DNA of 64,000 nucleotides from Bacteroidaceae bacterium (GTDB lineage: Bacteria; Bacillota; Clostridia; Lachnospirales; Lachnospiraceae): assembly GCA_963639875.1 (NCBI GenBank), contig CAVHWP010000004.1, forward strand, positions 33,168 to 97,167, given 5' to 3'. Below, in pieces: positions 47,631 to 49,693 of this stretch. The notes under the pieces were generated by a model that did not search any database, was not told the origin of the DNA, and saw only the letters and a program-made list of their open reading frames with translations. The number at the start of each line of letters is the position of its first letter. The first letter of the stretch is position 1. Position numbers and translations under genes: made by a program.

Positions 47631-48104
47631 CTACTTGTTTAACAAATACACACCGAAATTCAGGTAGCCGGCGAAGCTCACCCACAAAAGATAGGGCAGG
47701 AGCAGATAGCCGGCTGTTTTTGACAGCTTGAAAAATTCCTTCATGGTCAGGAGAATGAGTACCCAGAGGGCAATCAGCCAGGCAAAGGAAAACAGATACC
47801 ACTGCATGTTGAAAAAGAAAACGGACCACAGAAAATTGAACACAAGCTGTATGCCGTACAGCGAAAGCGCCGGAAGTCCGTCCTGCCCCGACTTGTAAAT
47901 CAGGTAGGAGGCAATCCCCATTAACACATACAGAATGCCCCATGCAATGGGAAAGAGCCAGTCCGGGGGTGTGAGGGGCGGCTTTGCCACCTGAGCAAAG
48001 GCTTCCATGCCGCTTTTGGTGATAAGCGCAGACAGACCGCCTACCGCAAGCGGGATGGCGATGCTTATGAGTAACGGTTTCCAGTTGATTTCTTTTATAT
48101 TCAT
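47631..48104 (-). CDS. tspO: TspO/MBR tryptophan-rich sensory protein
   Basis: KPPLTPPDWLFPIAW, QLVFNFLWS, LLPYLLWVSFA.YLN. Confidence 0.92.
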   Translation of the reverse strand: MNIKEINWKPLLISIAIPLAVGGLSALITKSGMEAFAQVAKPPLTPPDWLFPIAWGILYVLMGIASYLIYKSGQDGLPALSLYGIQLVFNFLWSVFFFNMQWYLFSFAWLIALWVLILLTMKEFFKLSKTAGYLLLPYLLWVSFAGYLNFGVYLLNK

Positions 48105-48203: not shown

Positions 48204-48555
48204 TTTGACCCAACTGTTACATATCCATGACAGAGTCAAAGGATTTACTATGCTCTTCGTTACTTTTTTGACCCTAATTGTACTATCCTCCATCAGAGTC
48301 AAAGGTAAGCGAGCATCATTTCTTATTACTTTGACCTATTAAGGAGAAAACTCTCATAGAGTCAACCCAAAGGTACCATGAAAAACTGTCTGATTTGACT
48401 CTGTGAAGACTTTTTGCTGACAAAGTCAAAAAGTCTTTCAAAATAAATTCCATATGTTTGACTCTGCAGCGATGTTTCTCTCTGAAAGTCAAAAGTCTTT
48501 CCTTTTAATGGAGTTCGAGGTTGACTCTGTTGGCGTTTTTTATTTTAGAGTCAAA
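48204..48555. repeat. Phased array of six TTGAC-N25-GTCAA inverted-repeat units, about 63-bp period
   Basis: TTGAC at 48205, 48268, 48331, 48395, 48458, 48521; GTCAA at 48235, 48298, 48361, 48425, 48488, 48550. Confidence 0.9.
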
Positions 48556-48580
48556 TTTCAAAAAAACTTGTCCCAACCCC

Positions 48581-48611
48581 TTGACTTGGAGTGAACTCCA
48601 AAGAATATAAT
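48581..48611 (+). promoter_or_regulatory. MerR-family-type promoter/operator
   Basis: TTGACT, 19 bp, TATAAT, with dyad TTGGAGT-GA-ACTCCAA (48586-48601) in the spacer. Confidence 0.8.
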
Positions 48612-48634: not shown

Positions 48635-48725
48635 GCAAAACAAGGAGGAAAATCCTCTGCTCCTGCAAAGGCGCATGCTATGCGGGCATAGCAGGATTTT
48701 ACTCCGTAAAACAAGGAGGATTAAT
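48635..48725 (+). repeat. Dispersed RBS-bearing structured repeat, copy upstream of the first AKR gene
   Basis: 38 bp (48635-48672) identical to 49620-49657; 30 bp (48696-48725) near-identical to 49664-49693; related to the reverse complement of 26534-26671. Confidence 0.9.
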
Positions 48726-49613
48726 ATGGATTACGTTACTTTGGCGAATGGTGTTAAGATGCCCCAGCTGGGTTATGGGGTGTATCAGGTGACAAAGGAG
48801 GAATGTGAGCGCTGTGTATTGGATGCACTGGCAGTCGGCTACCGGAGCATTGATACGGCACAGGCATATTTTAATGAAGAAGAAGTGGGAAATGCCATTG
48901 TGAAATCCGGTGTGCCCCGTGAGGAAATCTTTTTGACCTCCAAGGTATGGCTGGAACATTTTGGATATGAAGAGTGTAAGGCATCCCTGGATGCTTCTTT
49001 GGAAAAATTAAAAACCGATTATGTGGATTTGATGCTTTTACATCAGCCGTTCGGAGATGCTTACGGCGCATGGAGAGCACTGGAAGAGTATTACGAAGCA
49101 GGTAAGATTAAAGCCATCGGCATTTCCAATTTCTATGCGGACAGAATGGTGGAATTTGCCAACTTTAACCACATCAGACCCATGGTAAACCAGGTGGAGG
49201 TACATCCTTTCAACCAGCAGAAAGAACTGAAAAAGTGGGCGGATAAGTACAATATTCAGGTAGAAGCATGGGCACCCTTCGGAGAAGGCAGAAAGGGCTT
49301 ATTTGACAACGAAATCTTAAAGGAAATCGGTGCCAAATACGGAAAGACCACAGCACAGGTTATACTTCGCTGGCACTTGCAGAGAGGCATCGTAGTAATT
49401 CCGAAATCCACGCACAAAGAGAGAATGGAAGAAAACTTCCGGGTATTTGATTTCACTCTTTCCGAAGAGGATATGAACAAAATAGCAGACATGGATACGG
49501 CAACCAGCTCCTTTTTCTCCCATCAGGACCCTGCCATGGTAGAGTGGTTCGTACAGATGGTGGAGGAGCGTAAAAAGAACCGGGACTGCACCAAAGAAAA
49601 GAAGAACTGGTAA
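48726..49613 (+). CDS. Aldo/keto reductase (2,5-DKG reductase-like)
   Basis: GYRSIDTAQAYFNE, TSKVW, LLHQP, VIPKS; start MDYVTL after AAGGAGG. Confidence 0.92.
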   Translation: MDYVTLANGVKMPQLGYGVYQVTKEECERCVLDALAVGYRSIDTAQAYFNEEEVGNAIVKSGVPREEIFLTSKVWLEHFGYEECKASLDASLEKLKTDYVDLMLLHQPFGDAYGAWRALEEYYEAGKIKAIGISNFYADRMVEFANFNHIRPMVNQVEVHPFNQQKELKKWADKYNIQVEAWAPFGEGRKGLFDNEILKEIGAKYGKTTAQVILRWHLQRGIVVIPKSTHKERMEENFRVFDFTLSEEDMNKIADMDTATSSFFSHQDPAMVEWFVQMVEERKKNRDCTKEKKNW

Positions 49614-49619
49614 AAAGAA

Positions 49620-49693
49620 GCAAAACAAGGAGGAAAATCCTCTGCTCCTGCAAAGGCAGTCGCATTTTACTTCGTAAAACAAGGAGGATTAAT
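49620..49693 (+). repeat. Dispersed RBS-bearing structured repeat, copy upstream of the CMD-cupin gene
   Basis: gcaaaacaaggaggaaaatcctctgctcctgcaaaggc...attttacttcgtaaaacaaggaggattaat. Confidence 0.9.

Follow-up and report, generated by a model that had tools for sequence, protein, structure and literature searches.

A stretch of 64,000 nucleotides on contig C4 of a 2.6-Mb genome (hereafter the window, G000:C4:33168-97167, with G000 denoting the genome) contains, at positions 48204..48555 and with no strand assigned, an array of six 63- or 64-bp units, each of which consists of a 35-bp module, tTTGAC-N25-GTCAAa, and a linker of 28 or 29 nt. The reading that we favor, with a probability of a little under 0.6, is that this array provides a set of docking sites on duplex DNA for P0001, a predicted homodimeric protein with a Vsr-like (PD-(D/E)xK) nuclease domain, and that the set is an orphan, in that no gene of the P0001 family adjoins it and the gene for P0001 itself is located elsewhere, behind an array of the same type. 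This reading draws on the conservation of the array family among related genomes, on the occurrence of such arrays upstream of genes of the P0001 family, and on the presence in G000 of a paralog with array sequences of its own.

The window array and its genome-wide family

A search for TTGAC-N23..27-GTCAA returned the six modules of the array and no other match in the window, against a mean of 0.25 for shuffled sequence, and none of 100 shuffles reached six. The modules start at 48205, 48268, 48331, 48395, 48458, and 48521, with periods of 63, 63, 64, 63, and 63 bp, in agreement with an earlier note on this DNA that had described a six-module array of TTGAC-N25(24)-GTCAA. Module 1 (48205..48239), which reads TTGACCC...AGAGTCAA, has an interior of 25 nt, as do modules 2 (48268..48302), 3 (48331..48365), 4 (48395..48429), and 5 (48458..48492); the interior of module 6 (48521..48554) is 24 nt, and the base preceding that module is G, not T. 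The sole 29-nt linker follows module 3 and gives the 64-bp period.

The description of the array as something other than a plain tandem repeat was fair: Tandem Repeats Finder gave no report at the array, because the interiors of its units are too diverged, yet adjacent units are still related in sequence. Nor is it a CRISPR array, as had also been stated, given that the conserved parts are 5 to 9 bp in length and alternate in orientation, whereas a CRISPR array would have unique spacers between direct repeats of 23–55 nt that are identical. The array DNA, interiors included, matched nothing in phage and plasmid collections, and there is therefore no sign that the interiors represent captured foreign DNA. 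A decayed gene for a protein with a 21-amino-acid repeat was considered and rejected: no frame is open through the window array, the longest open reading frames inside it are of 46 to 58 amino acids, and periods of 62 and 64 bp occur. One array, that on contig C11, does contain an open frame, of 213 amino acids and low-complexity sequence.

The extended motif TTGACYY-N19..23-RRGTCAA was found in 41 modules of G000, 40 of them in seven intergenic arrays of two to eight units and one solitary (C14:5704), and a looser TTGAC pattern gave 47 matches versus 17 for a reversed control. The arrays consist of five modules on C1, six on C4 (the window array), seven and one degenerate on C11, five and one degenerate on C14, seven on C17, two on C21, and eight on C34. 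Of the 40 array modules, 35 have an interior of 25 nt; of the 33 steps from one module to the next, 27 measure 63 bp and five measure 62 or 64 bp. Both arms share one consensus half-site, tTTGACYCW, and the extended half-sites that had been proposed for the window hold throughout the genome, with both arms of all 40 array modules following t-TTGAC-Y-C/T-W. Interiors and linkers are similar within one array and different between arrays. Genes flanking the arrays are unrelated housekeeping genes (for EPSP synthase, alanine racemase, rpe, HU, and rpsI, among others); three of the seven arrays sit between convergent genes, and no conserved neighbor gene was apparent among the 24 flanking proteins of the seven arrays or at the solitary module. 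The gene just upstream of the C14 array (G000:C14:20991-21773) encodes a DUF2726 protein (E = 2.1e-21), of a family that is itself part of the PD-(D/E)xK nuclease clan, and the open reading frame of this gene continues into the first units of that array. Avoidance of the half-site outside arrays was considered and discarded: 43 occurrences were observed versus 95 under a mononucleotide model, but Markov models gave 49 to 67, and the deficit is not significant.

Among 269 species genomes of the genus, a two-unit TTGAC pattern occurred in three, G000, G052 (the same genome as G041), and G055 (the same as G042), and it was absent from 16 other families sampled. The G052 genome, which represents a sister species, contains 44 TTGAC modules, in arrays syntenic with all seven of G000 and in one extra array. 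The ortholog of the window array in G041/G052 is 89% identical and has seven units, with module 5 duplicated; both cores of module 1 are kept in the orthologous unit. We compared the 40 units of G000 one by one with their G052 homologs and counted differences per class of position. The cores (TTGAC and GTCAA) differed at none of 400 positions, the flanking T/A at 3 of 80, positions 6 to 8 at 27 of 240, interiors at 73 of 757, and linkers at 63 of 922. The contrast between cores and the sum of interiors and linkers (136/1679, 8%) was significant in Fisher's test (p = 1.6e-13), and core differences remained at 0/550 when G055 was added. For the window array alone, the corresponding figures for the comparison with G052 were 0/60 for cores, 11/113 for interiors, and 6/142 for linkers. 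These data show that the TTGAC arrays form a genome-wide family with strong purifying selection on 5- to 6-bp cores and on spacing. Both half-sites and spacing are kept at orthologous loci, and the suggestion in the earlier note that spacing and short inverted ends are under selection was well founded.

The arrays themselves come and go. Unit number varies between species (6 versus 7, 5 versus 8, and 8 versus 8 versus 3), and the closest relative, G055, whose flanking genes are 95–99% identical, is without three of the arrays. At its C17 and C1 loci no more than 1 and 14 bp separate the flanks, and at the window locus of G042/G055 an AbiEi/AbiEii toxin-antitoxin pair of approximately 1.5 kb stands in place of the array, with flanks unchanged. 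Arrays are individually dispensable, but cores and spacing are tightly held where arrays are kept.

Matches to the pattern were also found in other lineages. The TTGAC-pattern arrays of RUI281, SUG216, and SUG220 provide no independent sign of selection, because it was the pattern that served to find them and because their units scarcely differ from one another. Matches in Nostoc, Cenarchaeum, Streptomyces, and similar cases look like unrelated tandem repeats and were set aside; the archaeal Cenarchaeum record (L057) has a 63/78-bp repeat with nested TTGAC...GTCAA, two Nostoc records (L023 and L137) are likewise repeats, and all are probably chance matches. In Anaerovoracaceae (L028, L037, L040, L052, and about 40 more loci), as well as at L024, L048, and others, we observed dispersed composites of four TTGAC(A)-N25-GTCAA modules with fixed spacings. 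One type has a spacing of 83/62/83 and nested doublets offset by 9 bp, and a second has a spacing of 43/64/43. The sequence between the motifs of these composites is variable, and there are many copies per genome. Two lineages of Clostridia besides Anaerovoracaceae have such composites, and they were noted in the 'A80'/Avanaerovorax genomes.

P0001, its gene family, and the arrays upstream

P0001 is a protein of 263 amino acids encoded on the minus strand at G000:C11:55842-56633, outside the window and downstream of rpsI-rplM. Its gene is free-standing, with rpsI and an EamA gene as neighbors, and the end of the C11 array is separated from its ATG by 24 nt. The protein belongs to no Pfam, NCBIfam, or PHROGs family, and a protein atlas returned hypothetical clusters only. 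The family to which it belongs comprises at least 3,569 database clusters, the few source-named ones all being 'hypothetical protein' (from Roseburia, Blautia, Frisingicoccus, and Lachnospiraceae). Of the 269 genus genomes, 123 contain members, a single genome having as many as 10, and the members are often located 100–500 bp from the end of a contig, a position that suggests repeats beside the gene.

Inverted-repeat arrays were present upstream of the 11 nearest homologs of P0001 without exception. The G052 ortholog (91% identity) has a TTGAC array in the same arrangement. Of the next-closest 10 homologs (50–56% identity), seven have upstream arrays reported by Tandem Repeats Finder, with 51- to 53-bp units and inverted ends that are mostly TACGG...CCGTA, and the remaining three were found by inspection to have the same half-sites every ~52 bp (TACGT at one locus). 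Genes of the P0001 family therefore regularly carry such arrays upstream, as judged from these loci. Upstream of more distant family genes we noted inverted-repeat units of other kinds: TTAGATAAA...TTTATCTAA repeated upstream of the gene on G043:C140 (L253), TTGCGTG...CACGCAA units upstream at G352:C1:185533-189234 (L257), and a single TGGTGACAAA...TTTGTCACCA upstream in G354/G355 (L255/L256). An Rfam search of eight related loci gave nothing relevant.

A survey of the region downstream of rpsI, covering 30 loci, one per genus, from 54 genomes with a match (four of the loci having short flanks), revealed an array by Tandem Repeats Finder in three (G000, G298, and G329). In exactly these three a P0001 homolog (53–54% identity) directly follows the array, and the other 27 have no such homolog there. 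In a fourth lineage, represented by G043, rpsI is followed by a TTGAC array but the gene is missing. The site just past the rpsI terminator (loci L188 to L217) appears as a recurrent home of array-plus-gene cassettes in separate genera, with differing half-sites. In at least 10 of the 54 genomes the rpsI match lies within ~1.2 kb of a contig start, which could reflect unassembled repeats, the count being blind to the side of the break. An ortholog of P0001 was not found in G055, whose contig ends 250 bp downstream of rpsI, so that its absence may reflect either loss or incomplete assembly.

These distributions bear on the possibility that the arrays are selfish or relic repeats, namely footprints of a mobile cassette of array and nuclease gene that were amplified by slippage, with perfect ends regenerated by the nuclease, through cutting and repair or gene conversion, and with no present function for the host. 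Such an origin would be in keeping with a multicopy gene family often close to contig ends, with a site past rpsI that is occupied by the cassette in three genera and by just an array in one more, with differences in unit number between species and the clean loss of whole arrays from the closest relative, and with the accumulation of arrays between convergent genes. We nevertheless consider it improbable. The arrays are syntenic, with unit-by-unit orthology, in species that are 8–11% apart, and there has therefore been little recent movement; orphan arrays keep their cores and spacing, which would need continued selection or enzyme action; and no remnants of the gene were detected beside orphan arrays, with tblastn revealing only three family loci in G000. 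Full-length copies of P0001 were not found on plasmids, and a single match with 79% coverage was found in a 4.2-kb phage-labeled contig.

The half-site upstream of a family gene is also dispersed elsewhere in the genome that contains it. In five genus genomes with a TACGG-type array upstream, TACGG-N25..28-CCGTA-N12..22-TACGG occurred 13 to 38 times, at three to eight separate places each and with variable interiors, compared with 0 to 2 occurrences for controls. Across the genus, 13 genomes have at least 10 such matches (the largest control total being 9), and a family gene is present in all 13, compared with 123 of 269 overall; we give this count without a p value, related genomes being non-independent. 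The three family loci of G000 are P0001, a paralog on C8 (31% identity), and a third, partial match also on C8. Directly upstream of the C8 paralog are six 52-bp units of TACCCA-N16-TGGGTA, and arrays of this type, with a period of 51 or 52 bp, occur at seven places in the genome, all outside the window (G000:C8:48311-48620, C5:30856-31119, C17:38270-38612, C40:6844-7109, C4:28921-29054, C31:3483-3615, and C3:61523-61581), with a total of 25 modules versus one in the reversed control. On the basis of these pattern counts, half-site types differ between lineages and between paralogs, and the type upstream of the gene is also dispersed elsewhere in its genome. The finding of two paralogs with two private array families provides the strongest argument that it is the protein, and not a general host factor, that reads the repeats.

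A scaffold for some other host factor, such as a CtsR-like repressor or region 4 of sigma-A reading the half-sites, is accordingly very improbable in our estimation. In 38 of 40 modules the right arm has the sequence RGTCAAA, which equals the CtsR heptad, and the left arm offers a −35-like TTGAC after a T-rich stretch. General factors would nevertheless be expected in all genomes of the genus, whereas the TTGAC type is found in three of 269, and in other lineages arrays built on the same plan have half-sites of unrelated sequence (TACGG, TACCCA), which go together with the nuclease-like gene. In contrast to the −35 consensus, none of 80 half-sites has A at position 6, no −10 element lies at promoter distance, and single modules outside arrays are not enriched (6 versus 17 in the reversed control).

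P0001 was examined with sequence profiles and structure models. PADLOC profiles matched residues 141–261 to the COOH-terminus of the defense candidate PDC-S68 (E = 1.6e-26), to PDC-S69, and to HEAT_CxxC_PD-DEXK (4e-5), and the COOH-terminal domain by itself forms the end of large 'AAA ATPase / RecD-like helicase' genes on plasmids. A sequence profile of P0001 gave no match among chains of the Protein Data Bank (PDB). The AlphaFold2 model (pLDDT 89, pTM 0.64) consists of a helix, a β-hairpin, and a long helix (residues 1–132) followed by an α/β domain. A Foldseek search of the PDB with this model gave no row at E ≤ 0.001, the best being E = 7e-3; the weak top rows were nearly all of the PD-(D/E)xK type (Bax1, arenavirus cap-snatching endonuclease, PspGI, DrdV, BamHI, NucS, TnsA, and T7 endonuclease I). 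With VIA-align, residues 147–263 were matched to the catalytic domain of I-Bth0305I (3r3p_B) with a Z of 8.6 and a root-mean-square deviation of 2.8 over 91 aligned residues, and to Bax1 (8gy8_B) with a Z of 8.3; structural matches of the NH2-terminal region were generic helical hairpins. E160, E177, D191, E202, E206, and H207 are invariant in 33 homologs. The COOH-terminal domain of P0001 is thus predicted to be a Vsr/PD-(D/E)xK-like nuclease domain.

P0001 is also predicted to form a symmetric homodimer. The homodimer model scored 0.70, compared with 0.02 for the best of three controls, with at least 97% of contacts in agreement between runs and a partner pLDDT of at least 85; among proteins of solved structure, 20 of 30 same-chain pairs and 1 of 23 single chains attained the mark applied here. 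The modeled interface runs through residues 1–120, and the two nuclease domains point outward.

Recognition of the modules as duplex DNA or as RNA

If P0001 is the reader, one dimer would contact both inverted half-sites of one module on duplex DNA. The centers of the half-sites are 30 bp apart within a module and 33 bp from the next module, about three helical turns each. At 10.5 bp per turn, 63 bp makes six turns, which would place successive modules on one face of the helix, so that dimers bound side by side could coat the array or wrap it. The outcome might be that the repeats are kept up and propagated, in the manner of REP/RAYT systems, that local recombination alters unit number, or that the chromosome or defense is served.

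An RNA-level system, in which the arrays are transcribed as a 5' leader or by read-through from adjacent genes and the hairpins of the units are bound or cut by protein, in a way that resembles type III toxin-antitoxin systems, is the main alternative; we regard it as unlikely, though worth serious attention. It would account for an array directly upstream of the gene at every family locus examined and for changes of half-site between lineages that are complementary on both arms. Within the TTGAC family, however, covariation between the arms is absent: of 40 modules, 24, 25, and 21 have a Watson-Crick combination at positions 6, 7, and 8, respectively, compared with 24.8, 27.2, and 21.8 expected under independence, and the duplex reading is therefore likelier than the hairpin reading. 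Each arm alone obeys the same degenerate consensus, C.A mismatches are frequent at positions 6 and 7, and the cores contain no G.U-compatible transitions (0/400). On the purine-rich strand, G.U pairs exceed C.A mismatches at positions 6 and 7 by 20 to 11, a margin too small to decide between the readings. The constant part taken as a hairpin would amount to just a 6-bp A/T-rich stem with a loop of ~23 nt. Compared with shuffles, the window array gives better folds on either strand (z = −3.45 and −4.90), an outcome that inverted repeats ensure in any case, but the minimum-energy folds pair half-sites of distant units and do not form a row of local hairpins. A CsrA sponge, to which GGA in the loops might point, was considered by eye and set aside.

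Other evidence also speaks against recognition as RNA. The predicted fold of P0001 is of a DNA endonuclease type. The interiors are not conserved, unlike those of known repeat-RNA antitoxins, and Rfam 15 gave no match overlapping the window array, the nearest rows having E ≥ 1.6, far under the gathering score. Three metatranscriptome or metagenome runs, each with 5–7% of the words, leave 48244-48573 uncovered and so bear on transcription in neither direction. The pattern of the arms is what a two-fold symmetric protein reading two duplex half-sites would be expected to give, and it fits such a protein better than a hairpin. Of the three options offered in the earlier note, a protein-binding scaffold is the best supported, by the arms, by the nuclease-like gene family with arrays of this kind, and by the predicted symmetric homodimer; a multi-hairpin RNA is weakened, and nothing was found in favor of a cassette or integron-like array.

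Several observations nonetheless weigh against P0001 as a reader of duplex DNA, and some of them would also be explained by RNA. The arrays are polar, with the purine-rich strand being the sense strand in all three informative co-directional contexts, and a weak polar purine motif is present at interior positions 12–19, neither of which a symmetric DNA site would require. In pooled TACGG arrays the arms covary at position 7 (53 versus 38.4 expected), a result that hairpins would explain and that is confounded by subtypes. A promoter-like site lies upstream of the C11 array (two found, 1.5 expected) and no terminator-like site lies between array and gene, so that the array may be transcribed as the 5' leader of P0001. 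Invariant residues that look catalytic are present, and an active nuclease with ~40 chromosomal sites would call for an explanation. The genomes with composite elements (Anaerovoracaceae and related) have 6 to 11 family genes each, yet TTGAC modules were upstream of none of eight examined, and G203 (80% complete) has eight TACGG matches with no match to a family gene. Arrays are individually dispensable, as the absence of three from G055 indicates. Finally, P0001 is likely to be the partner of the TTGAC arrays, but this assignment is made by adjacency and by analogy with the paralogs only.

Neighboring genes, known systems, and implications

The window array lies between divergent genes. The TspO/MBR gene (47631..48104, minus strand) points away from it on one side; on the other, a promoter-like TTGACT-N19-TATAAT with an internal dyad and MerR-type spacing (48581..48611, plus strand) heads an operon for an aldo/keto reductase (48726-49613), a CMD-cupin protein, a second aldo/keto reductase, and a RibD_C protein. 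Both the TspO gene and the promoter-like site are outside the repeat family, the latter because it has no counterpart next to the orthologous array of G041/G052. A seventh TTGAC, at 48581, had been recognized in the earlier note as the −35 element of a promoter of the MerR type, and it is indeed the −35 of this promoter-like site, whereas the link of the array to a MerR-type promoter is coincidental. No MerR_1 gene is present on this contig, all six copies in the genome being on other contigs.

That the array might serve to regulate the adjoining TspO gene or reductase operon is scarcely credible. It sits between divergent genes and 27 bp from a promoter-like site that starts with the same TTGAC, but the orthologous array in G041/G052 is flanked by other genes, with neither TspO nor the reductase operon nor the MerR-type promoter, and the window array is therefore independent of its present neighbors. 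Promoter and operon also persist without the array in G042/G055, and the six other arrays of G000 are in unrelated contexts, three of them between convergent genes. At the G042/G055 locus (L148, G042/G055:C4:30300-32700), we noted that the AbiEii reading frame is split in two and that a deletion has joined the first reductase gene to the final part of the CMD-cupin gene. A leader-like element (window 48635-48730 and ~49617-49690), in which a 22-mer common to 48644 and 49629 is followed by a hairpin-like stretch, stands ahead of the first aldo/keto reductase gene and again ahead of the CMD-cupin gene; window 48635-48730 is matched by many metatranscriptome contigs of other organisms, and the element had no above-threshold match in Rfam.

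The nearest known logic is that of REP/BIME elements with RAYT proteins (REPINs), by analogy, with a different enzyme family and probably with recognition of duplex DNA. These proteobacterial systems resemble the present one in having short palindromic, dispersed intergenic units, often arrayed in alternating orientation, and a single-gene nuclease family located beside its own type of repeat, with paralogs that have different repeats in one genome. The enzyme here is Vsr/PD-(D/E)xK-like, however, and not a Y1 HUH transposase; only the 6- to 9-bp ends of the units are conserved, the interiors drift, and the arms do not covary; and the array is upstream of the gene only, instead of on both sides, with strict phasing of 51–53 or 63 bp. 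The RAYT family (PF01797) had no match in G000 or G052 and was found only in G044 and as a fragment in G055. The window array is not a REP/RAYT member, because a RAYT gene is absent and the units are not conserved hairpins.

The best structural match of the COOH-terminal domain, I-Bth0305I, is reported to be a homodimer with several domains that has a Vsr-like fold and covers ~60 bp of DNA in footprints; it is encoded in a phage group I intron and cuts one recA target, with the highest specificity at a central 14-bp pseudopalindrome (PMC3239194). This footprint is near the 63-bp unit of the present arrays. P0001 differs in being free-standing and chromosomal, in having another NH2-terminal region, and in going with ~40 candidate bipartite sites whose conserved parts are 30 bp apart. 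Membership of the 'EDxHD' homing endonucleases was rejected on the grounds that P0001 is located outside any intron or intein and has ~40 candidate sites instead of a single target.

Two further comparisons are relevant. Type III toxin-antitoxin systems such as ToxIN resemble the C11 locus in having a tandem repeat array directly upstream of a nuclease gene. In those systems the RNA repeats are near-identical, a terminator precedes the toxin gene, dispersed orphans are not known, and the toxin is an endoribonuclease of another fold; here, by contrast, interiors are variable, no terminator-like site separates the C11 array from the gene, and most arrays are orphans. Neisserial dRS3/RS mosaic elements and mycobacterial MIRU arrays share intergenic arrays at many loci, short inverted repeats that bound variable segments, and varying unit number, but they are not known to have strict helical phasing, a fixed interior length, or a cognate gene that carries the same array. 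The best reading of the sequence data would be a repeat family tended by its own nuclease, with no Rfam model and with no Pfam, NCBIfam, or PHROGs family.

Full-text literature searches yielded no description of the arrays or of the gene family. The repeats may well have gone unnoticed so far because just 10 of every 63 bases are conserved. The partnership of repeat and protein is likely, from its occurrence in the genomes compared, to be common in gut Lachnospiraceae. Tentatively, and with the odds against it, we suggest that in gut Clostridia a large family of Vsr-like nucleases that form homodimers has evolved varied DNA specificities (TTGAC, TACGG, TACCCA, and others) in parallel with phased genome-wide arrays of bipartite sites, with each paralog coating or nicking its private set as a duplex counterpart of REP/RAYT and with a role in chromosome structure, control of recombination, or defense. 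Were this so, such nucleases would be a natural source of long-spacer, re-targetable DNA-binding modules. The presence of two paralogs in one genome, each with its own type of site, makes swaps of specificity directly testable. If the link between P0001 and the arrays holds, it would make explicable ~40 conserved sites here, hundreds in relatives, and many contig breaks in Lachnospiraceae assemblies, and would provide a first handle on an anonymous protein family of at least 3,569 clusters with no Pfam domain. It would also widen the REP/RAYT idea, in which a domesticated nuclease looks after its own repeats, so that a second enzyme superfamily and Gram-positive bacteria of the gut are included.

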